Notes: generated from the sequence alone by a model not told the origin. A stretch of 64,000 bases of DNA from Ekhidna sp. (GCF_965247405.1 NZ_OZ252014.1:2938569-3002568), one strand, 5' to 3'; counted from the stretch's first letter, positions 11,887 to 46,796 are shown. Program-made: numbers and translations.

Positions 11887-11978
11887 TGGGGTTAAAGATA
11901 AAGAGCCTTGCAAAAGCAAGACTCCCTATTCTCCAAACTATTACTCGTCTCATTAAATCATTTATTCCACTTTTTGTT

Positions 11979-12224
11979 TTAGTGATCTAGTTCTGAGCAT
12001 TCAAATCCGACTTTTTCCAGAATTACTGCAATATTTTTACAGGAGAGCACATAGGACTCTACCTTCAAAACATGCTCCCAATCATCAAGATCTACCGTCC
12101 ATCTTTTTATGCAATGAAGCTGACTAAATGCATGGTCGACTTTTCTGACATCATCTGGGGTACTGATATTACTTTTAAGAATAAGGACGTTAAGGTCTTG
12201 TTTTGGTCTAGTGAGTATTTCCAT
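11979..12224 (-). CDS. Small hypothetical protein (HMA-like fold suspected, no CxxC)
   Basis: 81 aa lying between the TonB-dependent receptor and crtY on the same strand. The beta-alpha-beta-like pattern resembles metal-chaperone folds but has no metal-binding cysteines. Confidence 0.4.
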   Translation of the reverse strand: MEILTRPKQDLNVLILKSNISTPDDVRKVDHAFSQLHCIKRWTVDLDDWEHVLKVESYVLSCKNIAVILEKVGFECSELDH

Positions 12225-12229
12225 GTCTA

Positions 12230-14632: not shown

Positions 14633-14828
14633 CGTGTTGAGTGTTGGTTTTGATGCTAACCTACGAGTGCAAATAGGGTGCGGAAACGCTTTTTGAAGCG
14701 ATATGGTATATTAGATAGTTCAAACCGGAGAATCTGCGCCTGAACTGTGTTTCATTAATTGACAAGATGTAAATCAGGTTTCAGTTCCCTTTATTTCCAT
14801 TTCACACCCTGAAATCTCAGGTTCGCAT

Positions 14829-15914: not shown

Positions 15915-16672
15915 AGGTATTGATCATAGAAGATGAAGCACCGGCCTTCCGGCGACTGGAGAAAATACTCCATGAAATCGATCCAACAATTGAAATTGTG
16001 GAGGTTTTGGATAGTGTGGAGGACACTGTGAAATGGCTTAAAAATCATGAACAACCTGACTTGGCATTATTGGATATCCAAATCAGTGACGGGATCAGTT
16101 TTCAGATATTTGATGAGACAGAAGTCGCTTGCCCTGTCATATTTACCACTGCTTTTGATGAGTATTTACTTAAAGCATTTAAGGTAAATAGTATCGATTA
16201 TTTGCTGAAACCAATTAAGAAAGAAGACTTACAAGGTGCCTTGGATAAGTACAGGAATCTGAAAGTCAGCTACAATCAAAATGGAATTGATATGGCGACT
16301 CTGCTTAGTCAAATCAATCTGACCGAAACCAAATACAAGTCCAGATTTCTCGTGAAGCAAGGGGATAAGATGATGGCTATTCGATCCGAGGATATTGTTT
16401 GTTTTCATACCAAACATGGAGTGGTTCATATCTTCACGAAGAATGAAAAATCCTATTTGTCAGATTTTACACTGGATGAGTTAGCACAGCAACTAGACCC
16501 TCAAGATTTCTGTAGGGCTAATCGACAATTCGTTCTAAATGCCAATTACATCATCGCTGTTCATAAGTATTTTAAAGGAAAACTTTTGGTAGAGCTTGAA
16601 CATTTCGATGAGGAGCAAATAATTGTGAGCAGCGAAAAGGCGACCACTTTTAAGCAGTGGCTGAATCAATAA
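15911..16672 (+). CDS. LytTR-family response regulator (pair 1)
   Basis: Its start overlaps the kinase stop. It has a receiver domain (MKVLIIEDE ... LALLDIQISDG ... FTTAFDEY ... DYLLKP) and a C-terminal LytTR DNA-binding domain. Confidence 0.9.
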   Translation: MKVLIIEDEAPAFRRLEKILHEIDPTIEIVEVLDSVEDTVKWLKNHEQPDLALLDIQISDGISFQIFDETEVACPVIFTTAFDEYLLKAFKVNSIDYLLKPIKKEDLQGALDKYRNLKVSYNQNGIDMATLLSQINLTETKYKSRFLVKQGDKMMAIRSEDIVCFHTKHGVVHIFTKNEKSYLSDFTLDELAQQLDPQDFCRANRQFVLNANYIIAVHKYFKGKLLVELEHFDEEQIIVSSEKATTFKQWLNQ

Positions 16673-17028
16673 TTCGGTTTAGGTTTTTTCTTTTTTCTGC
16701 CCGTCAAGAATCGAAAAGCATCCACCATTTTATAAGTACCTATTACACCTGTGATGCCACCAGCTACGAGAAGAGCTTGCCCTGCTTCGTCATTTTCTCG
16801 ACCAAGCATAAGACCACCTGCAATGGTGGTGGTATATCCAAGTGTGGCTATGAGTATTCCGCTCTGAAATTTCCTTTGCGATTGTTCAAGGTTTAGGTTG
16901 ATTTCATTTACACCTGCCTCCAGCTTCATGATTCTGTTTTTTAATGAATCGTAAGATGAGGGTGTCTGTGCAAAAAGGGTGGTGGAGGTGATGAAGATTA
17001 AAAAGCTGATTGTTATGCGATAAACCAT
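16666..17028 (-). CDS. Hypothetical membrane protein downstream of response regulator 2
   Basis: 120 aa with a signal/anchor, a short coiled coil and two Gly-rich TM segments. Its start overlaps the end of the RR gene, so it is probably co-transcribed. Confidence 0.45.
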   Translation of the reverse strand: MVYRITISFLIFITSTTLFAQTPSSYDSLKNRIMKLEAGVNEINLNLEQSQRKFQSGILIATLGYTTTIAGGLMLGRENDEAGQALLVAGGITGVIGTYKMVDAFRFLTGRKKKKPKPNY

Positions 17029-17762
17029 TCTTTAAAAGGATTGACTTTTTCTCTGCTCAACACAAGTTCTTCCGAGCTTGGTATTGCCAATGATAACGAT
17101 AATCGTTGATTTTTATAAGGTTTTAAAGCTGTTATGGCTTCCTTGTTCACAATGTGCTTTCTGTTGATTCTGAAAAATGATCTTTGCGAAAGAAGGCCCT
17201 GTTCAAGTTGCTCTAACGTAAAATCAGTCACATATACTTTACCCTCTATAAGGTCAGCAGCATGAACTACTTTGTTTTTGGAATAAAATATAGCCAATTC
17301 TGATTCCTTCTTGGGGATTAGGCGCTGACCTGATTTCAATAAGAACCGTTTGGTCTTTTCTGGCCCAAAACGATCCAGAATTGTTTTTATGTCTGAGTTT
17401 TCGGAATTGGTTTTTTCAAACTTTAAAATGGCTTTAGCCAGATCACTTTGGTCAATAGGTTTCAATAGATAGTGAAGGCTATTTACATCAAAGGCATCTA
17501 GCGTGTACTCATCATAAGCAGTTGTGAAGATGATTGGCACATCACACTTCAATTTTTTGAATATTTCAAAGCTGTTTCCGTCCGCAAGATGAATGTCACA
17601 AAAGATGAGGTCCAGATTGTCATGATGAGTGGAGAGGTATTGAACGGAATCCCGAACCGTATCAAGGGTCTTCAATACCTCATAGTTTGGATGATTATTA
17701 GCAATGATGCGTTTTAAGCGATCTGCAGCTATCTTCTCATCTTCTATTATTATGGTTTTCAT
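17013..17762 (-). CDS. LytTR-family response regulator (pair 2)
   Basis: It has a receiver plus LytTR architecture. The start MKTIIIEDEK at 17762 is preferred over the ORF start at 17777. Confidence 0.9.
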   Translation of the reverse strand: MKTIIIEDEKIAADRLKRIIANNHPNYEVLKTLDTVRDSVQYLSTHHDNLDLIFCDIHLADGNSFEIFKKLKCDVPIIFTTAYDEYTLDAFDVNSLHYLLKPIDQSDLAKAILKFEKTNSENSDIKTILDRFGPEKTKRFLLKSGQRLIPKKESELAIFYSKNKVVHAADLIEGKVYVTDFTLEQLEQGLLSQRSFFRINRKHIVNKEAITALKPYKNQRLSLSLAIPSSEELVLSREKVNPFKEWFIA

Positions 17763-27423: not shown

Positions 27424-28152
27424 ATGAATACAACATTAGCCGCAACCCTGCAATCAGGTGATTATGTAGGGTTCACCTTCTTTATTGGCAGTATGGCCAT
27501 GTTAGCAGCAACCGTCTTTTTCTTCCTGGAGATGAAAAGTGTAGACGGAAAATGGAGAACTTCTCTCTTAGTGTCAGGACTGATTACATTCATTGCAGCC
27601 GTGCATTACTATTACATGCGTGATTACTGGGTGCAAAATGGAACCTCACCAACCGAATTCAGATACATTGACTGGATTTTGACAGTACCGTTAATGTGTG
27701 TGGAGTTCTACCTGATCCTCAAAGCATTTGGAGCTAAAATCGGACTGCTCTGGAAGATGATCTTTTATTCAGTGTTCATGCTAGTAACCGGATACCTAGG
27801 TGAGACAGTATTCAGAGATAGTAGTGCCATTTGGGGAGCTATCTCAACGTTGGGGTACTTGGGTATCTTCTACGAAGTGTGGTTTGGATCAGCAAAACAG
27901 CTATCTAAAAGTTCTAATGATCCGGTTTTACAAAAAGCTTTCAATACGTTAGCCTGGTTTATTTTGGTTGGGTGGGCAATCTATCCAATTGGGTACATGG
28001 CTATCGAAACCGATGGTTTATTAAGTGGAATACTTTCTCCAAATTCTTTAGATATTATTTACAATATTGGTGATGCCATCAATAAAATTGGATTTGGCCT
28101 TGTGATTTACAGTTTGGCCGTTAGTCAATCAGCTAAAAAAGCAACAGCTTAG
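27424..28152 (+). CDS. Proteorhodopsin (light-driven proton pump type)
   Basis: 242 aa with seven TM helices. RYIDWILTVPLMCVEF supplies D83/T87/E94, the DTE motif of D97/T101/E108 in GPR numbering, with M91 at tuning position 105. The Schiff-base lysine K221 lies in GDAINKIGFG. Confidence 0.92.
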   Translation: MNTTLAATLQSGDYVGFTFFIGSMAMLAATVFFFLEMKSVDGKWRTSLLVSGLITFIAAVHYYYMRDYWVQNGTSPTEFRYIDWILTVPLMCVEFYLILKAFGAKIGLLWKMIFYSVFMLVTGYLGETVFRDSSAIWGAISTLGYLGIFYEVWFGSAKQLSKSSNDPVLQKAFNTLAWFILVGWAIYPIGYMAIETDGLLSGILSPNSLDIIYNIGDAINKIGFGLVIYSLAVSQSAKKATA

Positions 28153-28169
28153 TAATTTTTAATGATGAT

Positions 28170-28201
28170 GAGTGGAGTGCCTTTGCACTCCACTCTTTGT
28201 T
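28170..28201 (+). terminator. Rho-independent terminator after proteorhodopsin
   Basis: An 11-bp perfect stem, gagtggagtgc / gcactccactc, has a cttt loop and is followed by tttgttt. Confidence 0.6.
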
Positions 28202-28202
28202 T

Positions 28203-29102
28203 ATGGTTAGGATTATTCAATATGGATCAGCGCTTGTACTCATGGCAACTTTCCTTATCTGGAACTTGCCTCTTCAGTATGTCAATGCTTTTTGCTTAAT
28301 CTTAATCCTTGTTTTCGGTATACCTCATGGTGCAGTAGATCATCGCATTCACCTTTCCACGTCAGAAGACACAAGCGTTATCAAGTACGTTTTAAAATAT
28401 GTTTTGATAGCAGGGGGTTTCATCCTTTGGTGGCTTTTAGATCCATCCAAAGCTTTACTCATGTTCATTCTTTTATCATCTTATCATTTTGGTCAGGAAT
28501 TGCTAGAAGATCAAGAAATAAAGAATTCCAGTTTGTTTGTACGCATGATTTGGGGTGCATTGATCCTCATCGCGCCGATGATTTACCATTTGGAAGAAAT
28601 TACACCCTATTTGGTAGTAGTCGTCAAAGCTGAAGTATTCGACATTGGTAGCTGGAGGTTTATTACCCCTTCTTTGATCATATTAATGGCAATTGGGAGT
28701 TTGATTATGCTTTATCGTCAAGGAACAGGAATCCGTAAAATCTTTCGGCTTTTCATTTTCTTAATGTTTATTGTGATTAGTCACGTGTTAATGCCCTTCG
28801 TTTTGGCGTTCACACTATACTTTGTGCTATTTCATTCCTTAAATGCTTTTAGACATCAATATTTTTGGCTTAGAAGAGAAAAAAAACATTACAACCTGGG
28901 CCGTTTTATATCTGATTTAATAGGATTTAGCCTGCTGGCCATTTTGGGCATCCTTGCATTGCTCTGGTTTGTCAAGCCGGAAAATCAGACAATCCTTATT
29001 ACTTACTTCTTTATATTAATTTCCCTAATCACACTTCCTCACGCGATCACTTTAGATCAATTCTATCGATTCAGAAGCAAGCCTAAGCTTCGAACGAATT
29101 AA
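28203..29102 (+). CDS. blh: Brp/Blh-family beta-carotene 15,15'-dioxygenase
   Basis: A polytopic membrane protein with the conserved His set (GIPHGAVDH, SSYHFGQ, FHSLNAFRH, LPHAI). It lies adjacent to the rhodopsin. The ATG at 28203 is preferred over the TTG at 28197. Confidence 0.85.
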   Translation: MVRIIQYGSALVLMATFLIWNLPLQYVNAFCLILILVFGIPHGAVDHRIHLSTSEDTSVIKYVLKYVLIAGGFILWWLLDPSKALLMFILLSSYHFGQELLEDQEIKNSSLFVRMIWGALILIAPMIYHLEEITPYLVVVVKAEVFDIGSWRFITPSLIILMAIGSLIMLYRQGTGIRKIFRLFIFLMFIVISHVLMPFVLAFTLYFVLFHSLNAFRHQYFWLRREKKHYNLGRFISDLIGFSLLAILGILALLWFVKPENQTILITYFFILISLITLPHAITLDQFYRFRSKPKLRTN

Positions 29103-36260: not shown

Positions 36261-36857
36261 ATGAAAATCATCATTATCTTATTAAGTGGCTTATTAGCTT
36301 TCAGTGCAAGTGGTCAGGACAACCAAATAATAGCAGCCGGTATACTTCCTTATACGATCATCAACGATACTGTGTACGTGCTGTTGGGTTATGATGAAGA
36401 TAAACCTGGATGGACCGATTTTGGAGGAAGTAGAGAAATGGTAGGAACTTTAGATAATGATCAAAGACTGGAAACTCCACAGGAAATTGCAGTGAGAGAG
36501 TTTTTTGAAGAATGTAGAATGGTGTATGAAAAAGAAGAAATCAATCTCAATTTCAGACCGGAGGCCTACATCACTGCGGTTAATGGTGTTTACCGTAGCT
36601 ATGTTGTTAATATTCCATACAAATCCCGTCAGGAAATAAGGCAGGCATTAATTCCGGTCGATGAGAAGTTTGAAATTTTCAACGAAAAGAAAGATTTCTA
36701 TTGGATCACTTTGAATGAACTTAAATCTGTGATCCGAACTGGTAGCAATCGGCTTTCCAATTCACCAAATCAAGGGATCATTTATAAACACTTTTATAAT
36801 ACGTTGAATAAGATCTTACAAGATGATCAAATTGATTATTTGTTTGTGAAAGAATGA
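36261..36857 (+). CDS. Divergent Nudix-like protein with signal peptide
   Basis: The leader is MKIIIILLSGLLAFSASGQ. ETPQEIAVREFFEECRM matches E-x7-REUxEExGU except that G is replaced by R, and the upstream Gly loop is lengthened. Confidence 0.45.
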   Translation: MKIIIILLSGLLAFSASGQDNQIIAAGILPYTIINDTVYVLLGYDEDKPGWTDFGGSREMVGTLDNDQRLETPQEIAVREFFEECRMVYEKEEINLNFRPEAYITAVNGVYRSYVVNIPYKSRQEIRQALIPVDEKFEIFNEKKDFYWITLNELKSVIRTGSNRLSNSPNQGIIYKHFYNTLNKILQDDQIDYLFVKE

Positions 36858-37009
36858 TGCAAATCATTGATATAAAAAAGGCCAATCTTACGGTCATTTC
36901 TTTTTTTGAGTCGGAGAGAACTGAGCGTTAAAAAATCTTCCTGTGTAAGATTTTAGCGAAGGGATGGGGGCACCTAGTCAGGTTGCAGGGTAGCCCCGAA
37001 GACGAAACG

Positions 37010-37034
37010 AAAAAGCCCACAGTTTGTGGGCTTT
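37010..37034 (-). terminator. Probable ancestral ssrA terminator
   Basis: On the minus strand it reads aaagcccacaaactgtgggcttttt. It lies immediately downstream of the outermost ssrA 3'-end relic at 37037-37054. Confidence 0.5.
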
Positions 37035-37036
37035 GA

Positions 37037-37054
37037 AGTGGAGTCGGAGGGATT
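37037..37054 (-). repeat. Relic copy of ssrA 3' end (older att site)
   Basis: agtggagtcggagggatt is identical to 46397-46414. Beyond it the sequence diverges but still folds as a T-arm-like hairpin (ggagggat...atccctcc). Confidence 0.55.
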
Positions 37055-37189
37055 ATTCTATGATCCCTCCTTTCAATCTAGTCAGTCTCGAAAGCGATAC
37101 TTCGTATCCTAACCTCTCTACTTTCGCAATTCCAGAAATGAATTTCTTTCTTGCTCATTAGAAGGTTGTTTTTTGGCTTTCGAGCCATT

Positions 37190-37218
37190 GTGGAGTCGGA
37201 GGGATTCGAACCCTCGTC
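37190..37218 (-). repeat. att repeat (distal copy) of the ssrA-integrated element
   Basis: gtggagtcggagggattcgaaccctcgtc is a 29/29 match to 46398-46426. Confidence 0.85.
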
Positions 37219-37297
37219 TATATTTGATAAGTGACTGATTATGAGTTGTTTAATAAAATATTAGGCTGATTGATTGGTTCAAAATCATGTTTTTATT

Positions 37298-37315
37298 GAC
37301 CTATTTACTCAACCT
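37298..37315. repeat. Sub-terminal 18-bp repeat (candidate integrase arm site), left end
   Basis: gacctatttactcaacct matches gacctatttactcgacct at 46323-46340 in 17 of 18 positions, in the same orientation. Each copy lies 60-80 bp inside the att core. Confidence 0.4.
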
Positions 37316-37322
37316 ATTTTTT

Positions 37323-39017
37323 TTAATAAGATTGAGTTCTCAAATCTCGCTTGTTCTGATAATTTAAAACTCCTACCAAGTCTTTTCCATCTCCTTTTAG
37401 TTCACCGGTGATGTTTAGATTGATTGTTTGTCCGGCTATATTGTTGGCGAAGCTGCCACGGCCTGAGCTAGAGCCTCTTGAGCCACCTCCAGAGCCGCCA
37501 CCTCCTAAATTTGACCTAGCATTTGCTACTGCTGCCTTTAAAGCTGCTCCGGCCGCTATTGCTGCTATTGATAATCCAAGCGTCAATTCAGGTCTACCAC
37601 TAAACAGAGAGTTTCTTATTGATATTAAAAGTTCTGACATGGCTTTCGATGCTAACCCTAATTTGATTAACTGATCTCCTATAGTATCAGCTATTCCTAA
37701 TCCTGCCCGCTCCAGAGCTGCTTGAAAACCTTCTGATCCTACAGCAACACCAAATCCTGAGAAAGCATTAGCTAACTCCTGTTGCATCTGCATAACCTCA
37801 CTTATTATAGGCTTTGCCATTTCTTTAAATCGGTCTGCATTCGCTTGCATTGCTTCAAAGTATGAATTGTCTAGCTGCAATGGCCCTACCTCTGCCTGCG
37901 GTGCTACTCCTACAGATTGACGGTTGGTGAGGGTGTTATTCCTTTGGTTTTGCCAATCTTGGTATGCTTTATTAGCTCTTTGGCGTTCTGCTGCTTCTTG
38001 AGCTACAGCATCGTTTATTTCTTTTTGTCTGGCTAAAAGACCATCTAATATTCCTTGTTTTTTTGCCCAGACTTCTCCATCTACCTTACCCGCTTCTTCT
38101 ACTTCTTTTCGATACCTTTTTATCAGTATGGATAGCTGTGTTTGTTCTGTGATTTGACCTTTTAGGCGTTCGGTCATTTCTTTTGCTCCTGCAATGGCAA
38201 GATCATAAGCTTCACCAAACCCTCTTAATCTTATTTGGCTTTCTGCATCTCCACCTAATGCTGATACGGCTGTATTTGCAAAATCTAGCATTGCTGCAAT
38301 CACTCCGCTTGACTGATCGCCTATGGTTTTCTTTAGTTGGGTGAAGTTATCCTCTAGGTTGGATATTTTACCTCCTACCGTCTCGGAGATAGCAGCCATA
38401 GATCCGCTCACTCCTGTAGCATCTCCCAGGCTTAGTATGTAATCACGGATGGCTTGGTCTGTGAAGTTTACCTGCGTTTCTACACCTTTGAATGTAAACC
38501 TGACCTTATCGCCTTCTTTTTGTGATCGTATACCAAATTCTTTTAATCGCTCAAACTCTCCTACCTGTGCGTCTATTACGGCTTCTGCTAATTGATCAAA
38601 GTCTTTGCCTGTGGATGCTGCTAAGTCGCCTAGCTTACGCATTTCGTTTGAAGTGGGTACAAATCCCTGATTTGCCAGCTTTACAAATGCGCCTGTAAGG
38701 CCGTCTACCTGGAAGGGTGTCTTAGATGCAAACTCAGTGATCATCTGCATCGCTTTTTGTGCTTCGCTCCCTGATCCTAATGTGTTGGATAGTACCGCTT
38801 CCATTTTTTGGAACTTGGCCGTGGTTTCTATCACGGATTTTCCAAAGGATACCATCGTGCCTACGGCGAACATTCCGGCTAGTGTTCCTTTGATTTGTCT
38901 GCTTATATTGGAAGACTGCTGCTGAAATCTGGATAGTGAACCTTTGGCGTTATTAAGGTCTTTTTCCAGCCGCTTTTTGTCGGCCATCAGGCGATATACT
39001 AATGCTTCGCTGCTCAT
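37323..39017 (-). CDS. Phage tail tape measure protein
   Basis: 564 aa. It has the TP901/PhageMin_Tail-type core (ITEFASKTPFQVDGLTGAFVKLANQGFVPTSNEMRKLGDLAASTGKDFDQLAEAVIDAQVGEFERLKEFGI), coiled coils and a Gly/Ser-rich C-terminus. Confidence 0.8.
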   Translation of the reverse strand: MSSEALVYRLMADKKRLEKDLNNAKGSLSRFQQQSSNISRQIKGTLAGMFAVGTMVSFGKSVIETTAKFQKMEAVLSNTLGSGSEAQKAMQMITEFASKTPFQVDGLTGAFVKLANQGFVPTSNEMRKLGDLAASTGKDFDQLAEAVIDAQVGEFERLKEFGIRSQKEGDKVRFTFKGVETQVNFTDQAIRDYILSLGDATGVSGSMAAISETVGGKISNLEDNFTQLKKTIGDQSSGVIAAMLDFANTAVSALGGDAESQIRLRGFGEAYDLAIAGAKEMTERLKGQITEQTQLSILIKRYRKEVEEAGKVDGEVWAKKQGILDGLLARQKEINDAVAQEAAERQRANKAYQDWQNQRNNTLTNRQSVGVAPQAEVGPLQLDNSYFEAMQANADRFKEMAKPIISEVMQMQQELANAFSGFGVAVGSEGFQAALERAGLGIADTIGDQLIKLGLASKAMSELLISIRNSLFSGRPELTLGLSIAAIAAGAALKAAVANARSNLGGGGSGGGSRGSSSGRGSFANNIAGQTINLNITGELKGDGKDLVGVLNYQNKRDLRTQSY

Positions 39018-39526
39018 CTAATTGCTTTCTTTATCTGGTCTCTCATTAGCTTTTTTGCTGCTTGCTCAAAGCTGGCTTTAATGGTGGTTTTTGCTTTGTC
39101 TGCAAAACGGGCGATGTAGTTGTCTCCGCCTCCTACACTCTTGCCCTGAAATGCGCCCCTGTTTGCGCCTGTGCCTCTAGTGGTTCTTTGGCCTGTATCG
39201 TCTTTCTGGTATAGCTTGGCTACTCCCTGTGCGCTCCAGTCTCTGTCTCCCATGGGTATATCCGGTCCATCTATAACAATACGTGCGCCGGGCAAATATC
39301 CCTTTCGACTCATCTTCCTCCTTACCATTCGGGCAAGTAGCAGGGCTTTACTTATCCCGTCTTTACTGGTAGATCCTTTGAATGCTTTTATCCCTGCTCT
39401 TACCTCATGTACTCCGGGGATTAGTGCTTTGCTGGCGGCACGGTTTAGGTCTTTGTCTGATAGCTGCAACTTATCCAGCACGTTTAGTGCTTTCTTGAAG
39501 TCTCTATCGTCAAATCCTGTTTTCAT
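39014..39526 (-). CDS. Phage structural protein, HK97 gp10-like (tentative)
   Basis: 170 aa. Its stop overlaps the tape measure start as ATGA. The N-terminal pattern FKKALNVLDKL...AASKALIPGVHEVRAGIK resembles gp10-family tail-completion proteins. Confidence 0.4.
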   Translation of the reverse strand: MKTGFDDRDFKKALNVLDKLQLSDKDLNRAASKALIPGVHEVRAGIKAFKGSTSKDGISKALLLARMVRRKMSRKGYLPGARIVIDGPDIPMGDRDWSAQGVAKLYQKDDTGQRTTRGTGANRGAFQGKSVGGGDNYIARFADKAKTTIKASFEQAAKKLMRDQIKKAIR

Positions 39527-39624
39527 TCCCCCTCAGTTGAAAAAAGGGAACTCCTCATTTAATGGAAATTCAAATAATGGACGTTTTTGAAATTGAAGCG
39601 AGAGGAGCCCCTTTGCCAAACTAT

Positions 39625-39759
39625 TTAACCAAACTCTTTCTTGTGTTCCTTTATAACATCCTTGATGGATGAGGCTTTGTACTCTTTACCTTGCTCGAAT
39701 ACCTCCAACTTGCCGTTGTTATATGCCTGAAATGTTCTAAGTGCTTTTAATTTTTCCAT
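39625..39759 (-). CDS. Small phage ORF (44 aa) coupled to capsid gene
   Basis: The protein is MEKLKALRTFQAYNNGKLEVFEQGKEYKASSIKDVIKEHKKEFG. Its ATG shares one base with the capsid stop (TAATG). It is below the size cut-off of the ORF track. Confidence 0.3.
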   Translation of the reverse strand: MEKLKALRTFQAYNNGKLEVFEQGKEYKASSIKDVIKEHKKEFG

Positions 39760-40964
39760 TATGCTGCTGCTATGTATCTGATTTTAGTAAATGATTCTGC
39801 GTATCGTAGTGTCACTGCCATTCTCATGGTCAACCTAAATACGGTCTGATCATAGTCTGATCTTCTGTAAGGATCAATGAAAACATTAGGATTTAATCGA
39901 ATGGACACAACTGCATCTGAGAAGTTCCCCAAGATTGAAGTTGAGAGATCAGTACCACTTCCAACCGTTCCATTAATTGGTAAAGCCTGACTTATTAGTA
40001 CATCAACATCATCCAGGAATTCTGGCTTCATTAATGGCTGATTGTCACTTGCTTGAAGGTTAGACAGATCCGCCAATGTTCTAGGGTGATGAATAAGCGA
40101 TAAACTATCTGAGTTACCTTTAGCTGTAAGGATTGCTTCTTTAGCATCAATAAGCTTACCGTAATCTGCAAAAGCTGCACCATCACCTGAACCAAGCGAA
40201 ACAACGTTAATTCCTGATTGATTAATTATTCCGGTTGGTTCGTTAGATGAACCAGAACCAGCCAAAGCGGCCGCATCTAAAGCCTCAGATGCTCTTCTTT
40301 GTAAGTGGTTATCTAGGAATTGGGCACCTACTACCATATCCTGCAACACCTCGTTAGGAACAGTAACATTTAAAGCGAACTTTGTGAACGTTGGTGATAT
40401 AGCTGTAAAAGCTGGGTCACTATCTGCTATTTGATCAGATTCTGCATACCAGGCACCTGTTACATTAGTGGATACCTTTGCCTCTTCAAACTTGTTTCCG
40501 TTCGGCTCTGATTGTAAATCTCTAATAACTCCACCGGCCTTGGTGAATGATGAAAAGTTAAATAGCCCCGGAACGATTTGATTTAATTGGTGAGTAGGGA
40601 TCAAATCGCTATCACTGGACGAGCTAAGAGCTTTATTTTGTAGCTCTAGTTTTTTGAGAGCTTTTGTTTGTAGGATTTTGCCTAATGAAAATTCCTTGTC
40701 TGTTTTTGTTCCATTGGAATGAACATTAAAATCTCCGGTCAGAGTTTTACCTTCCTCTGCTGCTCGTTGGCCTTCTCTTTCTTCAGCCTTCTTTGCTGCT
40801 GTTAATGTTTTGCTTAGATCGTTCAGCTCCTTTTGAACGTCAACGATCTCATTGGTGGCATTATTCTGATCTTTCTTATCAGTGCTGCTCTTGATTTTAG
40901 CTAGGAGTTTTTCTTCTTTTTCCTCCAGCTGGGCAATTTTTGCCTCTAATTCATGTATCTCCAT
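39759..40964 (-). CDS. HK97-fold major capsid protein with N-terminal coiled-coil (delta/scaffold-like) domain
   Basis: 401 aa directly downstream of the prohead protease. It has an N-terminal heptad-rich segment of about 80 aa and a capsid-type motif ALDAAALAGSGSSNEPTGIIN. Confidence 0.8.
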   Translation of the reverse strand: MEIHELEAKIAQLEEKEEKLLAKIKSSTDKKDQNNATNEIVDVQKELNDLSKTLTAAKKAEEREGQRAAEEGKTLTGDFNVHSNGTKTDKEFSLGKILQTKALKKLELQNKALSSSSDSDLIPTHQLNQIVPGLFNFSSFTKAGGVIRDLQSEPNGNKFEEAKVSTNVTGAWYAESDQIADSDPAFTAISPTFTKFALNVTVPNEVLQDMVVGAQFLDNHLQRRASEALDAAALAGSGSSNEPTGIINQSGINVVSLGSGDGAAFADYGKLIDAKEAILTAKGNSDSLSLIHHPRTLADLSNLQASDNQPLMKPEFLDDVDVLISQALPINGTVGSGTDLSTSILGNFSDAVVSIRLNPNVFIDPYRRSDYDQTVFRLTMRMAVTLRYAESFTKIRYIAAA

Positions 40965-40987
40965 GTTTTGTCCTTTTTTTGAGTTTT

Positions 40988-41581
40988 TTATTTGTAAGTC
41001 CTTAGTCTTTTGTTCCTTGCTGCATTCGCCAGTACGTAATCAACTTTTTGGCCATGGTCGATTACTAGCGTAGGCGTACTGCTGTTACTGCCTCTCAACA
41101 CCGCACTACATTCAATTAATTCTATATTTTTTACCACATAGAAAAGTGTGGCTTCTTCCGCCTTTTCTGGGTTAGCAATCTGATTTATATACTGATCCCA
41201 CACGGCCTTTTCTTTCGGGCTTTCTTTGTCGTTTATGGCTAACTCTATCTCACGATAGCGCATCCCAATTGAATGTTGTTTTATTAGTCCTAGCTTGTAA
41301 GAGTTGTGAATTTTTTCATCTAGTTCCTCTAATACTTCTGATCGATAAATAAGGCATTCAGTAGATCCGGTTGCGCTAATTCCCAGCTTTTCAAAACTTA
41401 CCTGTTCGGCAGTAACATTCTTTACTATGCCTACATGACCGTCACTGAATTGCTTATGATCCTTGAGATGGTTCCATCCTTCCTTTCGGTAAATAGACTC
41501 ATTGTAATTACCTGGTATATGAACATCTAAATGACTGTCCATAATATTGGTTGAATTGGCAACTACTTTTACGGTTATCAT
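40988..41581 (-). CDS. HK97-family prohead serine protease
   Basis: 197 aa. It has a His region (DSHLDVHIPG), a Ser region (KQHSIGMRY) and a C-terminal IELIECSAVLRGSNSSTP, matching the S78/U35 protease pattern. Its position upstream of the capsid gene also fits. Confidence 0.7.
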   Translation of the reverse strand: MITVKVVANSTNIMDSHLDVHIPGNYNESIYRKEGWNHLKDHKQFSDGHVGIVKNVTAEQVSFEKLGISATGSTECLIYRSEVLEELDEKIHNSYKLGLIKQHSIGMRYREIELAINDKESPKEKAVWDQYINQIANPEKAEEATLFYVVKNIELIECSAVLRGSNSSTPTLVIDHGQKVDYVLANAARNKRLRTYK

Positions 41582-41736
41582 TCTTCCTCCTTGATGATTT
41601 TAACCTCTACCTCTAAAGGGTCAGTGTATTTAATGGAGTCCTTCTTTTCCTGAATAAGTGCTTCTTTGTTCTCTCTCAGATATTTGAGGCGTTCCTTTTT
41701 GTCTTTGATGGTGGTGGGGTCTATTGGCTTATTCAT
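41578..41736 (-). CDS. Small phage ORF (52 aa) coupled to protease gene
   Basis: The protein is MNKPIDPTTIKDKKERLKYLRENKEALIQEKKDSIKYTDPLEVEVKIIKEEE. Its stop overlaps the protease start as ATGA. It is below the ORF-track cut-off. Confidence 0.35.
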   Translation of the reverse strand: MNKPIDPTTIKDKKERLKYLRENKEALIQEKKDSIKYTDPLEVEVKIIKEEE

Positions 41737-42436
41737 AAGTTTTTCTAATTTCTCTATTTATCCACCCATAGAATGCTTTCCTATTATTAGCATAATCGTC
41801 TGCAATTTCACCAGTGACAATTTTATTCATGATTGTAAAGAATGACTTTTTAAGAATTGTAACATCATCCATTAGGACCATATAATTTGAGTTAAACACT
41901 TCTGAATGATCTATCTTTTCCCAGGTTGATTTAGAATCCCTTTTAATCACTTTTCCAAATAGATATTGATCTTTACTTTCTGGAGCATAATCAAAACATT
42001 TGCCGTCACTGTATAAATAAATGGATCCTGTAGATTTACTAAGTCTAACCTCACTCGTGATAGGATAGTAGCTTGCTTCAGTACTTTTTTGTCTAATTAA
42101 ATAATCCAGTACTAAGTGCGGCGGGTGATTAAATTTCCCCAAATGGTAGCCTTCACCAGAATCCATAGCACAACGATTCATAGCTGTTGGAACATCGTTA
42201 AGGGTTCTGGATGTGGCTAGAACATAGATATAGTATCCTATTTCCTGATGTTCAATTTTATCATAGCCTTTTCTGAAATCAAACATTCCCGGATTCCAGA
42301 GACGTATGCTTTTAGCTACCTCTTCACATTTCCTTTTTCCAAAAAGATCATGAAGAAACGGTAATCCAACTAACTGTCCTATTGTCATTTTTGAGTGATT
42401 TAAAAGTTTATTCAAAAGTACGATGCTGAATTGCAT
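41729..42436 (-). CDS. Hypothetical protein, lead gene of the structural operon
   Basis: 235 aa with no family recognised. It occupies the position where a portal or terminase gene would normally precede the prohead protease. Confidence 0.5.
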   Translation of the reverse strand: MQFSIVLLNKLLNHSKMTIGQLVGLPFLHDLFGKRKCEEVAKSIRLWNPGMFDFRKGYDKIEHQEIGYYIYVLATSRTLNDVPTAMNRCAMDSGEGYHLGKFNHPPHLVLDYLIRQKSTEASYYPITSEVRLSKSTGSIYLYSDGKCFDYAPESKDQYLFGKVIKRDSKSTWEKIDHSEVFNSNYMVLMDDVTILKKSFFTIMNKIVTGEIADDYANNRKAFYGWINREIRKTYE

Positions 42437-42441
42437 TAAGG

Positions 42442-42517
42442 AGTAAACTTATTTGATAATAACAAAATTGGGAATTAATAAATACGAATTTGTTTTTATT
42501 ATGAAAATAAGTTTACT
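42442..42517. promoter_or_regulatory. Divergent control region with 13-bp perfect inverted repeat
   Basis: agtaaacttattt (42442-42454) and aaataagtttact (42505-42517) bracket a 50-bp A/T-rich spacer between the two divergent modules. Confidence 0.45.
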
Positions 42518-42526
42518 TTGCTCATT

Positions 42527-42721
42527 ATGAGGACTAAACTAGAAGTATTTACCACCGATTACTTTCAAAAGGAGCTAGGTAACCCTCATAGAACTATCAA
42601 GGAATCTTTTGAAATCGCAAATCAAAAATTCTGCAACCACTGCCAGTTCTATGCCTACAGCGACTACCGAAGTTATCAGGTCACCTTAAAAAAGTCGAAA
42701 ACCAAAAAAGAGAACGTATGA
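42527..42721 (+). CDS. Small hypothetical protein (first gene of rightward module)
   Basis: 64 aa counted from the ATG at 42527 (the ORF opens at the TTG at 42518). It contains CNHCQ and is basic at the C-terminus. A regulator or excisionase role is possible but unsupported. Confidence 0.4.
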   Translation: MRTKLEVFTTDYFQKELGNPHRTIKESFEIANQKFCNHCQFYAYSDYRSYQVTLKKSKTKKENV

Positions 42722-43176
42722 AAACTAACGAAACTGCATTATCAGGTATTCAAGCCAGCATAGAACAGAAGAAGAGGGAAGCTTTCAAGAAGCTTCGACA
42801 GTTATACACTCACGTACACGGAAAGCCAGCACCGTATTATAACGACGATACGGCGAACTCCTTAACCCGTTGCATTATTGACTACCTGGAGTGTAAAGGA
42901 CATCAAGCTGAACGAGTGAATTGTTTTGGCAATCCAATTCCTCAGGGCAATGGTCTCTACAAGTTTGGGAAAACGAATATGAATTTAGGTACTAGCGACA
43001 TCCATGCCGTTTGTGAAGGCATTGCTTTGAAAATCGAAGTAAAGATAGGATCTGATCGAATGAGCAGCTACCAAAAACAATACCGTGATCAGGTTATTGC
43101 TGCAGGTGGAAAATACTTTGTGGCGAGAAGTTTTGACAAGTTTTTGATTTGGTTTCATAATGAGTTTGGAGGATGA
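42718..43176 (+). CDS. VRR-NUC / PD-(D/E)xK nuclease
   Basis: GTSDIHAVCEGIALKIEVKIGSDRMSSYQKQYRDQVIAAGGKYFVA fits the D...E-x-K core and the S..Q...aGG tail of VRR-NUC domains. Confidence 0.65.
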   Translation: MKTNETALSGIQASIEQKKREAFKKLRQLYTHVHGKPAPYYNDDTANSLTRCIIDYLECKGHQAERVNCFGNPIPQGNGLYKFGKTNMNLGTSDIHAVCEGIALKIEVKIGSDRMSSYQKQYRDQVIAAGGKYFVARSFDKFLIWFHNEFGG

Positions 43177-43616
43177 GTGAAAATAGTGACGCTAGATACT
43201 TAAGTCTAAAAAATAGCTTTCTTATGTATTATGAGCATACTGAAGATTTTGAGCTATTAACGGATGAACAGATAGGGAAGCTCATGAGGGCTGTCGATTC
43301 TTTTGAACGTCATGGAGAAACAGGGGTAGAATTCGAAGACCCATTATCTAAAAGCCTTTACAGAAAGATGGAAAAAGTGTTATCTGAGAATAAAATCAAG
43401 TACATCGAGAAATGTAAAAGAAACGGCAGTAATGCCAAGAAAGATCCTGGCAAACCAAGAGAGCTATCCTATCAGTTTGTGAGTGCCTTGGTTAAAAAAC
43501 ACTCATCGCTAAGCATTAGCAATCATTTCAAAATGCTTGAAAAAAATGGCGCTGATGGTAAGCCTCTTTGGAGCTTTATAGATAAAAAAACTGAGAATAA
43601 TTTTTTAGTCAAATGA
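43173..43616 (+). CDS. Phage protein, DUF6291-like (tentative replication-associated)
   Basis: 147 aa. The pattern LTDEQIGKLMRAV...GE...EDPLSKSLYRKMEKVLSENKIKYIEKCKRNGSNAKK resembles DUF6291 proteins of Bacteroidota phages. Confidence 0.35.
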   Translation: MSENSDARYLSLKNSFLMYYEHTEDFELLTDEQIGKLMRAVDSFERHGETGVEFEDPLSKSLYRKMEKVLSENKIKYIEKCKRNGSNAKKDPGKPRELSYQFVSALVKKHSSLSISNHFKMLEKNGADGKPLWSFIDKKTENNFLVK

Positions 43617-43669
43617 AAAGCCAAACAAACCCAGTGGGTTTATTACGATACTACATGGGTTGCGATATA

Positions 43670-43715
43670 ATCTATATCTATATCTGTTTCCCTAATCTGG
43701 ATCTATATCTATATC
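43670..43715. repeat. Iteron-like direct repeats
   Basis: The 15-mer atctatatctatatc occurs at 43670-43684 and 43701-43715, with 31 bp between starts. It lies in a segment that is probably non-coding (43617-43747). Confidence 0.5.
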
Positions 43716-43747
43716 AGATAATACCATTTCGCGAAAATTTTGAAAAA

Positions 43748-43915
43748 ATGAAAATCAACACAAAGGTAAAAACCCGGATGCTTCAGCTCTTAGATGAGAT
43801 GATATATGAAATCCGTGAGATTGAAAACACTCATCCTTTCAGCAATATGCCACCGGAGGATCTCCCAGTCATTTACCTATTGAAGAAAATAGCAGAACTA
43901 GAATTAGAACTATAA
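43748..43915 (+). CDS. Small hypothetical phage protein
   Basis: 55 aa counted from the ATG at 43748 (MKINTKVKTRMLQLL...). The longer ORF-track version starting at 43613 would read through the iterons, so it is not preferred. Confidence 0.35.
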   Translation: MKINTKVKTRMLQLLDEMIYEIREIENTHPFSNMPPEDLPVIYLLKKIAELELEL

Positions 43916-43927
43916 ACCAATACAATT

Positions 43928-44092
43928 ATGAAAAATGAGAACGAAAAACCACTAGCAACTTTCGAAAAAGAAGGAATTACCCATGGGTTCTTTCAGGCTC
44001 CTGAAAGTGATTATCCATTAATCGAGATCATCAAACGTCTAGACACTATGGAAACTGTCTCTCATGTTTTTGACAGGGAGCGTAAAAACTGA
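43928..44092 (+). CDS. Small hypothetical phage protein
   Basis: 54 aa (MKNENEKPLATFEKEGITHGFFQAPESDYPLIEIIKRLDTMETVSHVFDRERKN). It fills a gap in the rightward module and is below the ORF-track cut-off. Confidence 0.3.
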   Translation: MKNENEKPLATFEKEGITHGFFQAPESDYPLIEIIKRLDTMETVSHVFDRERKN

Positions 44093-44125
44093 AAATGAAT
44101 TTTAGAACATAAAAATCAAATTACA

Positions 44126-44416
44126 ATGAACAACATTAACAAGAAAATTGAAGGTTTAGAATCTCAACTAGGCAAAAACCTTGAGATAGACTGGACAGAT
44201 TCTATTACAAGAATACTTAATGAAACATGCATAAATAATGCGTTGCTTCTAGGGCTTACTAAAAGGCTCATTGAAAAGGATCCATTGGTAACCGATGTGG
44301 AAAAAGAGGTAGAAGAGGAGATAGAGGAAGCTGAAGAAAGAGCAGAGAAAATGTATGTTGAAATTCTTTCCGATTTGATTAATAAAACAGAAAAAAGGAG
44401 AAATAATGGAAACTAA
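44126..44416 (+). CDS. Small acidic coiled-coil phage protein
   Basis: 96 aa with a Glu-rich helix (EKEVEEEIEEAEERAEKMYVE). Confidence 0.4.
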   Translation: MNNINKKIEGLESQLGKNLEIDWTDSITRILNETCINNALLLGLTKRLIEKDPLVTDVEKEVEEEIEEAEERAEKMYVEILSDLINKTEKRRNNGN

Positions 44417-44660
44417 AAAGAATACAAGTTCAGGGCCTAGTTTAAACGTGAGAGGCTATAACAAACTGAAAAGGGCTGAAGCTATGATCGCGGGGGCAAT
44501 GGCTCTTATTGAGGATGATACCCCTAATTCATGTATTACCCTATTGGATAATGCAATGATGAATATTCGAGAAATAACCAATAAAATCGGAAGTCGAGAA
44601 TTGCACTTTTCCACTGTAGAGGAAAGCCGAAAAGAACCAAATTTAGAGCATCTTTATTGA
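44406..44660 (+). CDS. Small hypothetical phage protein
   Basis: 84 aa. It overlaps the previous ORF by 11 nt. Confidence 0.4.
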   Translation: METKKNTSSGPSLNVRGYNKLKRAEAMIAGAMALIEDDTPNSCITLLDNAMMNIREITNKIGSRELHFSTVEESRKEPNLEHLY

Positions 44661-44806
44661 GATCAGTAAATTGTAACATTCTAATAAAATGCTTTCTAAA
44701 AAATGGTCACGTAAAAAAGAAATCAGGGATTGGGTTTCGGCTCGATCCCTAAAAAACAATTAAGCATCCCCCTCCCCAAATTTTTAACAATAAACTGCAA
44801 ATAATT

Positions 44807-45040
44807 ATGAAATACGAAGACGCACTTGATTCTATCAAAAGACAGTTAGAAGATTGCCCGATTTATTTCTTTGAAGATACAAAAGAGGTTCTCGGTAATC
44901 TAAAATCTCAGTATGATAAAATATATCAGGGCCAACTATCAGAATCGGAAATAGACAGGCTTAGTAAAGCTGTAATCAACATTCATTTTGAAAACATGTT
45001 CAATGAACTGTTGGACATCAAGAATGAATTACTGTCATGA
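44807..45040 (+). CDS. Small hypothetical phage protein upstream of integrase
   Basis: 77 aa. Its stop overlaps the integrase start as ATGA. The position is compatible with an excisionase or accessory factor, but no motif supports this. Confidence 0.4.
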   Translation: MKYEDALDSIKRQLEDCPIYFFEDTKEVLGNLKSQYDKIYQGQLSESEIDRLSKAVINIHFENMFNELLDIKNELLS

Positions 45041-46302
45041 ACCCGCTGCAAATTCCTAAAAGGCATAGGGATTCAAAGCTAGGAATGTACGTCCGATGTA
45101 ATCACTGTAAGCAAAACATTACAGGTAAATGCGTCAAGACTGGCTTAAAGGTTTATACCTGTAAGCATGGCGAAAACCATCGGTATGTGAGTAAGGTATT
45201 TGATAAATCCAAAAACCACATGGTAACCGTTAAAACCTGGCCTAAGGAACTAAGAGACTTTAAGGAATTTTTTCGCTTGCATCTCCAGGCAATCAATAAC
45301 TATGAAAGTAGTCATAGAACTATTAATAGTAAGCCCGGACTAATGGGTGATTGCTTACGGATGTTTATTGATTATTTAGCAGATGTAGGGGTGCCTAGTT
45401 ATGAGCGAAAGAACCTTACTGAGAAGTACATCAAAAGCCAGGTTAATAACCTCAAGGATTTAAAGAGAGCTCTTTCAGATGAAGGAATGAACACTGATTT
45501 TCTAGTTGTTACTGAGTTCTCTAAAAGCCATGTTGGTATAGTTCACGACTACTTAGAAAGTAAGTATGCTGCCAAGACCTACAATCATAAGGTTTCAACT
45601 TATAGAGCCTTTTTTGCCTATTTAATTAAACAGGGTTACGAAATTGACAACTACTTTGATGAGGTTAGAAAGAAGCACACTCAATCTAGAGTTAAAATTA
45701 TCCCGATCCCTTTATTTAAGGAATTATGCGATACTGTTACTCCGATAGGAGGTATCAAGATTGAGAGACAAATCAGGAACGGAAAAGAGCGAGTTTATCA
45801 GAGAAATCTTTATAGGAAATGGCTAATAGATGTGTGGCGTTTTGCTATGTATTCCGGGGCAAGGAATAACGAGATAGCATTCATAAAAGTAAAAGACATT
45901 GAAACTGACTACATACGATGCAGAAACAATAAAGTAAGCACGAAGGAAAAAGAAGTATTTCGTTTAATCTACTTCACCAATGAGTTGATTGAGTTGGTTG
46001 ATCAACTAAAAAAGGGATTGTCAAATGATGATTATCTTCTTGCCCCGGATGAGTTAAATCGTAGAAATATGATTGATGTGGCTTCTAAAGCCTTCACTCA
46101 TTACATGAATAAAATTAGTGATGAAGGTTTCCAGCTATACGATTGTAGATCAACCTACTCAACTGAATTAAGAAAGGTGTTTGATTCTGAAACGGCGCAT
46201 TTATTAGGAGACCTTCATGCCAGATCTACAACAACCATTCAGAATTACATTAACAAGCAGGAATTATTCAAAATCCATAAAGGAAAAAAGCTATTTGGGT
46301 AG
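45037..46302 (+). CDS. Tyrosine-type site-specific integrase with N-terminal Cys/His cluster
   Basis: 421 aa. Candidate catalytic residues are R in YSGARNNEI, an H/R box in LYDCRSTYSTEL and H...Y in GDLHARSTTTIQNYI. The N-terminus has CNHC-x8-C...CKHGENH. It is adjacent to att and the tmRNA. Confidence 0.85.
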   Translation: MNPLQIPKRHRDSKLGMYVRCNHCKQNITGKCVKTGLKVYTCKHGENHRYVSKVFDKSKNHMVTVKTWPKELRDFKEFFRLHLQAINNYESSHRTINSKPGLMGDCLRMFIDYLADVGVPSYERKNLTEKYIKSQVNNLKDLKRALSDEGMNTDFLVVTEFSKSHVGIVHDYLESKYAAKTYNHKVSTYRAFFAYLIKQGYEIDNYFDEVRKKHTQSRVKIIPIPLFKELCDTVTPIGGIKIERQIRNGKERVYQRNLYRKWLIDVWRFAMYSGARNNEIAFIKVKDIETDYIRCRNNKVSTKEKEVFRLIYFTNELIELVDQLKKGLSNDDYLLAPDELNRRNMIDVASKAFTHYMNKISDEGFQLYDCRSTYSTELRKVFDSETAHLLGDLHARSTTTIQNYINKQELFKIHKGKKLFG

Positions 46303-46322
46303 TGGATTTTTGTTATCTACTC

Positions 46323-46340
46323 GACCTATTTACTCGACCT
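46323..46340. repeat. Sub-terminal 18-bp repeat (candidate integrase arm site), right end
   Basis: gacctatttactcgacct. In addition, tactcgacct itself is repeated at 46317-46326 and 46331-46340. Confidence 0.4.
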
Positions 46341-46361
46341 TCATACCCTAAAAAAAATGAA

Positions 46362-46395
46362 AACCGCCCATAAATCACTTTAAAGGCGGTTTTTC
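46362..46395. terminator. Bidirectional terminator between integrase and ssrA
   Basis: The stem is aaccgcc / ggcggtt. T-runs follow it on the plus strand (ttttt) and on the minus strand (ttcatttttttt). Confidence 0.5.
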
Positions 46396-46397
46396 CA

Positions 46398-46426
46398 GTG
46401 GAGTCGGAGGGATTCGAACCCTCGTC
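46398..46426 (-). repeat. att repeat (proximal copy) = 3' end of functional tmRNA
   Basis: It is a 29/29 match to 37190-37218 and forms the T-arm and the 3' acceptor strand of ssrA. Confidence 0.85.
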
Positions 46427-46796
46427 CAGCTAAGGAAATCATATACACTCTACATGCTTAGTCGTTCTTGTTTTATCTCGTACCTGCAGCTGGTGAACAA
46501 CAACCTACTGCAAATACCAGTTGCTTAATTTCATTCAGGATCCACAACACTACCCTGAACTATTCCTTATTATGACACCCCAAATTCCTCTCTCAAGGAC
46601 AAAGAGTGGTGGGATGTGGCAGGGGGAGCCTATGTGGCTCAACCCTGATTAATTAAAACATCTAAGTTCTAATTAGGCTGCCATAGCGTAGTTAGACTCG
46701 CCAATTACAATTTTGAGCGCATTTATCACAGATGTACACTCGCCACCTGGCATGCTAGCATATGCTTTGCACTTCCTGTCGATTCCAGTCGACCCC
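46399..46796 (-). ncRNA. ssrA: Transfer-messenger RNA (tmRNA)
   Basis: The minus strand reads 5' GGGGTCGACTGGAATCGACAGG ... GGACGAGGGTTCGAATCCCTCCGACTCCA 3'. The acceptor stem GGGGTCG/CGACTCC has a G3:U pair. It has a TTCGAAT T-loop and the internal tag ORF GGC GAG TCT AAC TAC GCT ATG GCA GCC TAA (GESNYAMAA) at 46673-46702. CCA is not encoded. Confidence 0.92.

Follow-up and report, generated by a model that had tools for sequence, protein, structure and literature searches.

A 9.2-kb element with capsid and tape measure genes at the 3' end of ssrA in Ekhidna sp.

A stretch of 64,000 nucleotides from Ekhidna sp. (GCF_965247405.1, NZ_OZ252014.1:2938569-3002568; hereafter the window, with positions counted from its first letter) contains an element of 9,208 bp (37219-46397 plus one 29-bp core) that was almost certainly integrated site-specifically, by its own tyrosine integrase, at ssrA, the gene for transfer-messenger RNA (tmRNA). 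Insertion at ssrA is textbook biology, and to this extent the finding confirms a known pattern. The locus is a clean and fully documented example of it: the site is occupied in one species and empty in a sister species, the terminator comes from the element, the arm repeats change with the integrase, and the older scars are nested. The unusual part is the cargo—capsid and tape measure genes in a member of the Bacteroidota.

The ends of the element are marked by a perfect direct repeat. The 29-mer GTGGAGTCGGAGGGATTCGAACCCTCGTC occurs exactly twice in the window, both times on the plus strand, where the number of copies expected by chance is 0, and no additional match appears with up to 3 mismatches. 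The sequences around the two copies are unlike on both sides (...CGAGCCATT-core-TATATTTG at one, ...GTTTTTCCA-core-CAGCTAAGG at the other), and the repeat is therefore short and bounded and no part of a larger duplication. A first-pass annotation of this DNA had reported the exact duplication and had raised a larger segmental duplication as the contrary case, against which the sharp loss of identity on either side speaks. The features concerned are as follows.

46398..46796, minus strand: complete tmRNA gene (ssrA), with tag GESNYAMAA (ARAGORN; Rfam RF00023)
46398..46426, plus strand: attL core, the last 29 nt of the working tmRNA (exact match)
37190..37218, plus strand: attR core, the displaced pre-integration end of ssrA (exact match; the orthologous position in the congeneric L230 is a working tmRNA 3' end)
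45037..46302, plus strand: tyrosine integrase of 421 amino acids with an N-terminal Cys/His cluster (PHROG 1, 1.4e-18; homologs 42-49% identical over the full length, with PF00589)

ARAGORN and Rfam RF00023 (match 46396-46796, full model, 150 bits) agree that the second copy belongs to the T-arm and 3' acceptor strand of a complete tmRNA, as first annotated; the core spans both of these, the discriminator base, and one extra C. The integrase, which had likewise been placed against this copy, reads toward the tmRNA 3' end and stops 95 bp from it. G+C content is 34-37% in the right half of the element and 40-44% in the flanks.

The core is conserved across Bacteroidota. Scans of IMG/VR and metagenomes recovered, among the matches listed, more than 130 other Bacteroidota loci at which the tmRNA ends in the same 29-mer. 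The loci listed number at least 137, all of them tmRNA ends or unrelated elements of other Bacteroidota, and none has a protein in common with the element.

An unoccupied site is present in a close relative. Homologs of the left-flank protein (36261-36857, Nudix-like, with a signal peptide) are 76-85% identical and belong to named Ekhidna sp. (Cytophagales); L230, a congeneric Ekhidna, has the same flank genes and dnaX around its tmRNA and no 9-kb insert. When 37219-46426 is removed, the window aligns colinearly with L230:12075-12450, with identity at 29/29 positions in the core, 107/135 to the left of 37190, and 114/134 in the tmRNA body, and in L230 nothing separates the tmRNA 3' end from the homolog of the DNA to the left of 37190. 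This is the empty-site allele that the first-pass annotation had suggested looking for in relatives. The locus therefore combines an integrase beside an intact target gene, a direct repeat of the 3' end at the far side, and an unoccupied site in a relative, all of which are marks of an island. A scan of genome contigs with the neighboring dnaX protein returned distant relatives only (best 76% identity), none with the left flank, and it yielded no empty site. L183, a moderately close relative, was set aside as a source of the empty site: it has only a Fic/HTH pair beside its tmRNA.

That the 29-bp repeat arose by chance, by segmental duplication, or through misassembly rather than by recombination is vanishingly improbable. 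Nothing was found in favor of this view, and the empty-site alignment with the sister species L230 already refutes it; the zero chance expectation, the abrupt end of identity on either side of the repeat, the presence of related integrases at the same site elsewhere, and the recurrence of the structure in independent assemblies all speak against it as well. The att/tmRNA layout is found in at least two separate assemblies, and exact-protein look-ups with the flank genes returned the same strain only, always with the island present. In a second assembly of this strain, a contig (L003:1-233) breaks inside the integrase gene, possibly owing to a repeat or to a population that is heterogeneous at the island.

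The integrase of the element recombined within the 29-bp identity block at the ssrA 3' end; as comparison with relatives shows, the incoming element restored this end and brought a new terminator, leaving the previous 3' end 9.2 kb away. The attB junction is predicted to read ...CTTTCGAGCCATT + 29-mer + CAGCTAAGGAAATC..., and the attP junction ...AAGGCGGTTTTTCCA + 29-mer + TATATTTGATAAGTG.... The first-pass annotation had credited the element with both the functional 3' end of ssrA and its present terminator. The second part of this claim is supported; for the first, the element's share of the 29 bp depends on the crossover point. Three features lie in the arms of the element.

~46350..46393, minus strand: ssrA terminator hairpin and U-run, from the element (fold -17.4 kcal/mol, z = -3.6; analogous hairpins in L222, L223, and L251)
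46314..46340, plus strand: tandem 13-nt repeats TATCTACTCGACC / TATTTACTCGACC, candidate P-arm integrase sites (Tandem Repeats Finder, period 13, 2.1 copies)
37298..37315, plus strand: motif copy GACCTATTTACTCAACCT, candidate P' arm site (94% identical, family D10)

The terminator hairpin folds well; its long loop kept it from being detected by a simple terminator scanner. Two comparisons agree that it came with the element: other elements at ssrA (L222, L223, L251) have their own hairpin and T-run at the same position, and the tmRNA of the empty site has no terminator until past a spacer, described below. The relatives that bear on this point were found through the integrase, whose family has only about ten members in the databases.

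L222: integrase 49% identical; adjoins ssrA with the same 29-mer, upstream of a syntenic dnaX block; cargo cut off by the contig end
L223: integrase 48% identical; adjoins ssrA with the same 29-mer, upstream of a syntenic dnaX block; TIR and SLATT defense genes
L251 (Ekhidna relative): integrase truncated, of the L222 type; ssrA, 5.9-kb island with a 24-bp flanking repeat; AbiGi and a NucS-like gene
L224: integrase homolog adjoining tRNA-Pro
L225: integrase homolog on a 46-kb circular phage contig

In all of the ssrA elements, the interval from the integrase stop to the core holds a tandem 12-13-nt repeat, a hairpin and T-run terminator, and then the core; in the window, the tandem repeats at 46314-46340 sit between the integrase stop and the core. 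The relatives have a tandem repeat, TTTCGAGGCATG, at the same place, differing from that of the window, and the repeat type switches with the integrase: ACTCGACCT in the window, as against TTCGAGGCATG in L222, L223, and L251. The motif copy at 37298-37315 lies 80 bp inside the far end of the element, where 0.19 copies would be expected by chance in the whole window. The far arm of L251 also contains a motif copy, around 11405, and in both elements the copies are ~80-90 bp inside the end. These repeats are candidate arm-type integrase binding sites, a role suggested by their position and by their change with the integrase. The cargo of the ssrA relatives L222, L223, and L251 is quite unlike that of the element studied here.

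Several observations were made on these relatives and on the site itself. L223:1-11086 has several TIR-domain and SLATT proteins by the ssrA integrase and is a probable defense island with the same integration module. The L251 island (11291-17237) contains an integrase truncated to 152 amino acids, a NucS/DUF4268-like gene, and a terminator of its own, with TTCGAGGCATG repeats in both arms. In L230 (10990-12035) and L183 (11581-12626), an HTH_3 and Fic pair beside the tmRNA 3' end has partial T-arm-like sequences at its borders and resembles a further small insertion at the ssrA hot spot. In the Ekhidna genome L227 (11076-11712), a group I intron (Rfam RF00028, 89 bits) with a LAGLIDADG homing-endonuclease open reading frame (ORF) divides the T-loop of the tmRNA after ...GGGTT. 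This split tmRNA was missed by ARAGORN; the intron interrupts the 29-bp attB core, and L227 has no island at ssrA. Occupancy by a group I intron may protect the site from integration. Introns at the T-loop position of tmRNA have been reported in Bacteroidia (PMC11915505). Across Ekhidna and related genomes, the ssrA site is thus held by the present element, by defense islands (TIR/SLATT, AbiGi), by a Fic toxin pair, or by a group I intron.

Traces of older events adjoin the element on its left.

37055..37189, no strand: 135-bp spacer from the displaced 29-bp end to a 17-bp copy, outside the 9.2-kb element (79% identical to L230:12148-12286)
37012..37054, minus strand: native ssrA terminator (37012-37034) and 17-bp copy (37038-37054) (terminator scan, fold, exact 17-mer)

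The 17-bp sequence, GTGGAGTCGGAGGGATT, is an exact third copy of the tmRNA 3' end and stands by the strong terminator, so that the order after the displaced 29-bp end is the 135-bp spacer, the 17-bp copy, TTC (on the RNA strand), and the terminator. Spacer and 17-bp copy are also present in L230 (window 37038-37189 corresponds to L230:12131-12286). In L251 and L227 the spacer is absent and the homologous terminator directly abuts the tmRNA end, in an orthologous layout, terminator-GAA-GTGGAG. A spacer common to the window and L230 and absent from L251 and L227 is the scar of an earlier event, to which the 9.2-kb element was added later; that event happened once, before the window species and L230 diverged, or independently in both lineages. 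The region 37190-37218 had been annotated as the displaced original 3' end of ssrA, and L230 supports it as the end that existed before integration; it is not the primordial end, as the older 17-bp scar and spacer follow it. The spacer folds into the same multi-branch shape in the window and in L230, with apparently compensatory changes in two hairpins (in these 2 sequences only), and an Rfam search of its 135 bp gave nothing convincing. An origin as a remnant of the L227 group I intron was rejected: the 3' end of that intron is homing-endonuclease coding sequence, with no similarity visible by eye. A degenerate fourth copy of the tmRNA end, TTTGAGTCGGAGAG..., lies at 36905-36918, just downstream of the Nudix-like gene, and is kept at L227:10829-10842 and L230:10641-10654, that is, in three Ekhidna genomes including that of the window. 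It is probably a still older scar; alone, such a match is within chance expectation for the window, and its credibility comes from its position and conservation.

The element itself encodes 16 ORFs in two divergent, tightly packed operons. The leftward operon (42436-37323) encodes, in order, proteins of 235, 52, 197, 401, 44, 170, and 564 amino acids, four of which are of virion type. The library scans covered the ORFs of our list, for which the 44-amino-acid ORF falls below the length cut-off.

41729..42436, minus strand: protein of 235 amino acids, first leftward gene, at the portal position (no library match)
Leftward operon, after the preceding gene, minus strand: protein of 52 amino acids (no significant match)
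40988..41581, minus strand: putative prohead protease or scaffold-like head protein, 197 amino acids (phage homologs, weak profile matches)
39759..40964, minus strand: HK97-type major capsid protein, 401 amino acids (Pfam PF05065, 6.4e-33, residues 120-395; TIGR01554, 1.6e-40; PHROG 10)
Leftward operon, between the capsid and neck genes, minus strand: ORF of 44 amino acids (called in the public assembly)
39014..39526, minus strand: HK97 gp10-family neck / tail-completion protein, 170 amino acids (structure model, viral structure library)
37323..39017, minus strand: tail tape measure protein, 564 amino acids (tape-measure PHROG families, up to 1e-58; Pfam TMP_3)

The capsid protein has a coiled-coil N-terminal extension of ~120 amino acids that resembles a delta domain. 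The 197-amino-acid protein is 42% identical (1e-30) to a 'structural protein' of Polaribacter phage Danklef_1 that is encoded between the portal and capsid genes, and has homologs at the same kind of position in 68 other flavobacterial phage records. It matches the PHROG 80 head maturation protease weakly (E = 0.01) and, locally around an SIG/SVG motif, the protease domain of a fused protease-capsid protein; a sequence search of the PDB gave nothing. The N-terminal 230 amino acids of the tape measure protein are 54% identical to gp040 of the Flavobacterium myophage pippi8-1, and IMG/VR contigs reach 58-69% identity over the same domain. Its length is comparable to that of gp040 (542 amino acids), and it is therefore full length. 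Phages with this N-terminal domain have no other gene in common with the element. The start codon of the tape measure gene overlaps the stop of the neck gene, and its own end lies ~105 bp from the attR core, beside the P' arm site.

For the 170-amino-acid protein, a model built from 25 relatives (predicted local distance difference test, pLDDT, 82) matches gp10-family and 'tail component' proteins in a viral structure library (E = 1e-4 to 1e-3, probability 1.0), and two members of the family match PHROG 5 and PHROG 27, 'tail completion or Neck1'. A fold search of the PDB with the model returned no significant match, and a PDB sequence search with the family returned nothing. A role as a tail assembly chaperone like gp038 of pippi8-1 was rejected after a negative direct comparison. 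The 235-amino-acid protein has no match in Pfam, PHROGs, NCBIfam, PADLOC, or phage genomes; its interpretation as a truncated portal was also rejected, as it has no similarity to the Danklef_1 portal and is too short; for the same reason of length, a very divergent portal, though conceivable, is improbable. Searches of the element's ORFs in Pfam, PHROGs, and NCBIfam found no portal, terminase, tail tube or sheath, baseplate, or lysis protein, no recognizable replicase, and no other phage-like gene beyond the four of virion type.

The rightward operon leads to the integrase.

42518..45040 (to 46302 with the integrase), plus strand: rightward operon, eight small ORFs then the integrase (ORF list; start and stop codons of neighbors overlap)
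42718-43176, plus strand: VRR-NUC-like nuclease (weak VRR_NUC match; PHROG endonuclease and resolvase matches)
43173-43616, plus strand: DUF6291 protein (Pfam DUF6291, 2.4e-12)
43669..43715, no strand: two iteron-like 15-mers, ATCTATATCTATATC, within AT-rich DNA just after the DUF6291 gene (repeat family D6)
42437..42517, no strand: divergent control region of 81 bp between the operons (perfect 13-bp inverted repeat, 42442-42454 / 42505-42517)

The inverted repeat pair around the divergent promoter region is a candidate operator, and the iteron-like 15-mers are a candidate replication origin. An ORF of 100 amino acids is called across 43669-43715, and its N-terminal part is probably non-coding. 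The integrase itself scores 23 bits against Pfam PF00589, under the curated cut-off of 27.1, and the PF00589 assignment is that recorded for its homologs; in an alignment of 10 homologs, residues R276, K299, R371, H394, and Y404 are invariant. The homologs align from residue 1, which indicates that the integrase has 421 amino acids and that the 360-amino-acid call of the assembly, starting 61 codons late, is too short. Within residues 1-60 (45037-45220), C21, C32, C42, and H48 are conserved in the family and suggest a zinc-ribbon-like domain.

At 9.2 kb, and with most virion genes lacking, the element cannot be an autonomous tailed phage; the full terminase, portal, head, tail, lysis, and replication set of such a prophage is absent. 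It looks intact and still mobile, to judge from the catalytic Arg, Lys, Arg, His, and Tyr kept in the integrase, the motifs in both arms, the packed operons with an operator-like repeat, and the possible iteron origin. No truncated or frameshifted gene is visible in it, and start and stop codons overlap between ORFs. The overlap of the neck stop with the tape measure start, together with the tape measure stop at the P' arm, is more in keeping with a compact layout that evolved as such than with random deletions. We give about an even chance to the reading that the element is a helper-dependent phage satellite. After excision, the capsid protein and protease of such a satellite would serve to assemble or reshape capsids. 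A helper phage would supply the portal, the terminase, and the remaining tail components, and the satellite's own neck and tape measure proteins may adapt the helper tail to it. A more specific proposal is rather unlikely, and we advance it tentatively: that the element represents a new family of Bacteroidota satellites with their own HK97-type capsid, neck, and tape measure, which would obtain the portal, terminase, and other tail parts from a flavobacterial-type helper, re-tool its head and tail, and spread via a tmRNA core common to much of the phylum.

A number of observations weigh against the satellite reading. Neither a small terminase, a portal, a recognizable replication initiator, nor a repressor was identified in the element, and 7-8 of its ORFs have no assigned function. 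The single-sequence structure prediction for the 235-amino-acid protein (pLDDT 34) is unusable, the prohead protease assignment is a weak one drawn from gene position, weak profile matches, and phage homologs, and the closest database homolog of the capsid protein is 29% identical. In the HxxR motif of the integrase, H is replaced by Y, at a position that varies across the family. IMG/VR scans with the capsid protein, the integrase, the 235-amino-acid protein, and an alignment of the gp10-like family returned nothing, and the searches gave no other element with this cargo. The attP junction of the element is absent from the 17 IMG/VR loci with the 29-mer and from the at least 137 loci listed, and no excised or packaged form is seen among the IMG/VR and metagenome matches listed. 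No helper phage is known, the analysis having covered the 64-kb window.

Some of these facts, with others, would fit a cryptic prophage remnant, that is, an ssrA-integrated temperate phage that internal deletions have reduced to its integrase module with some early and a few late genes, which may still excise and would have no life cycle of its own. This explanation has an appreciable probability, though one well short of even. The cargo consists of ordinary structural genes in the usual order of protease, capsid, neck, and tape measure; a circular phage contig of 46 kb (L225) also encodes a member of the integrase family; decay of an island at the same ssrA site is seen in the truncated integrase of L251; and older scars adjoin the element. 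Deletions could have been joined at two non-coding gaps (39527-39624 and 42437-42517). The searches recovered no relative reduced to the same genes, and the lack of a detected small terminase or portal and of any packaged or circular form points the same way. A remnant would nonetheless require several independent clean deletions in an element that shows no truncated or frameshifted gene: genes that are far apart in phages (neck and tape measure) are joined by overlapping stop and start codons, the tape measure gene stops immediately beside the P' arm site, neither att core contains a mismatch, and the integrase remains intact.

It is improbable, though conceivable, that the element is an integrative island whose capsid, neck, and tape measure proteins serve the host as anti-phage decoys, poisoning phage assembly, and that it is not itself packaged. 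The same integrase family and site carry defense genes in L223 (TIR/SLATT) and L251 (AbiGi and a NucS-like gene), and flavobacterial phages and IMG/VR contigs encode tape measure N-terminal domains 54-69% identical to that of the element. On the other hand, the PADLOC defense models match nothing in the element, and a complete capsid protein with a delta-like extension, encoded along with a protease, points to genuine capsid assembly. Interference usually accompanies a satellite lifestyle, and a decoy island is hardly a separate model.

Comparison with described systems places the integration module more firmly than the cargo. The tmRNA genes are a frequent target of islands, and such islands are common (PMC11915505). 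Like other ssrA islands of the Islander type, the element has an integrase by an intact tmRNA, a repeat of the 3' end at its far side, a restored 3' end, and older tandem scars at the site. Its particular features are a 29-bp core over the whole T-arm and 3' acceptor strand, an ssrA terminator that it brought in, and an integrase from a clade with an N-terminal Cys/His cluster. It differs from these islands in nothing essential, and shows every feature of theirs that could be tested.

With respect to the cargo, the flavobacterial phages Danklef_1 and pippi8-1 have homologs of the 197-amino-acid head protein (42%) and of the tape measure N-terminal domain (54%), respectively, but these are complete phages of 35-47 kb that have no match to the element's capsid, integrase, or other genes. 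Capsid-forming phage-inducible chromosomal islands (cf-PICIs) resemble the element in being small and integrative (~10 kb), in having their own HK97-type capsid protein, a prohead protease (putative in the element), and a head-tail joining protein, and in lacking most tail genes, so that the element would likewise depend on a helper phage. The cf-PICI gene set includes a portal and a small terminase and lacks a tape measure protein, the tails being those of the helper. The present element, in contrast, has a tape measure and no detected portal or small terminase, and no AlpA-like protein or primase-replicase was recognized in it. Of the parts of a classical PICI or Staphylococcus aureus pathogenicity island (SaPI), only the integrase was identified; the iteron-like repeat hints at an origin, and no repressor, primase, or small terminase was recognized with Pfam, PHROGs, or NCBIfam. 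The element is not a cf-PICI, and it is probably neither a classical PICI nor P4-like. Satellite families have been described mainly in Proteobacteria and Firmicutes, whereas the host here belongs to the Bacteroidota.

A precedent for the cargo is the EPIP satellites of Mycolicibacterium, which encode capsid and tape measure proteins, a combination described as otherwise unknown in satellites (PMC12822802, bioRxiv 2025). EPIPs, found in Actinobacteria, have a serine integrase, a small terminase, a head-to-tail adaptor, a stopper, and a scaffold (PMC12822802), and only the combination of capsid and tape measure is common to them and the element, with no relationship expected at the sequence level. 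With a tyrosine integrase and no small terminase found, the element is no EPIP; the existence of a satellite with both proteins nevertheless counts in favor of the satellite reading. Marine virion-encapsidated elements described earlier encode no capsid proteins (PMC9618062). The element may function as a capsid-forming satellite does, though no defined family includes it.

Some 8 kb to the left of the element, at ~27424-29100 (L001:1164-2842), a rhodopsin gene (PF01036) is followed by a beta-carotene dioxygenase gene (PF15461). This pair is a light-driven pump cassette typical of marine Bacteroidota.

To our knowledge, few satellites have been described from marine Bacteroidota. If the satellite reading is true, the element would be among the very few satellites that encode both capsid and tape measure proteins, and would come from marine Bacteroidota; it would also offer a tractable system for the question of how a satellite hijacks the head and tail assembly of its helper.

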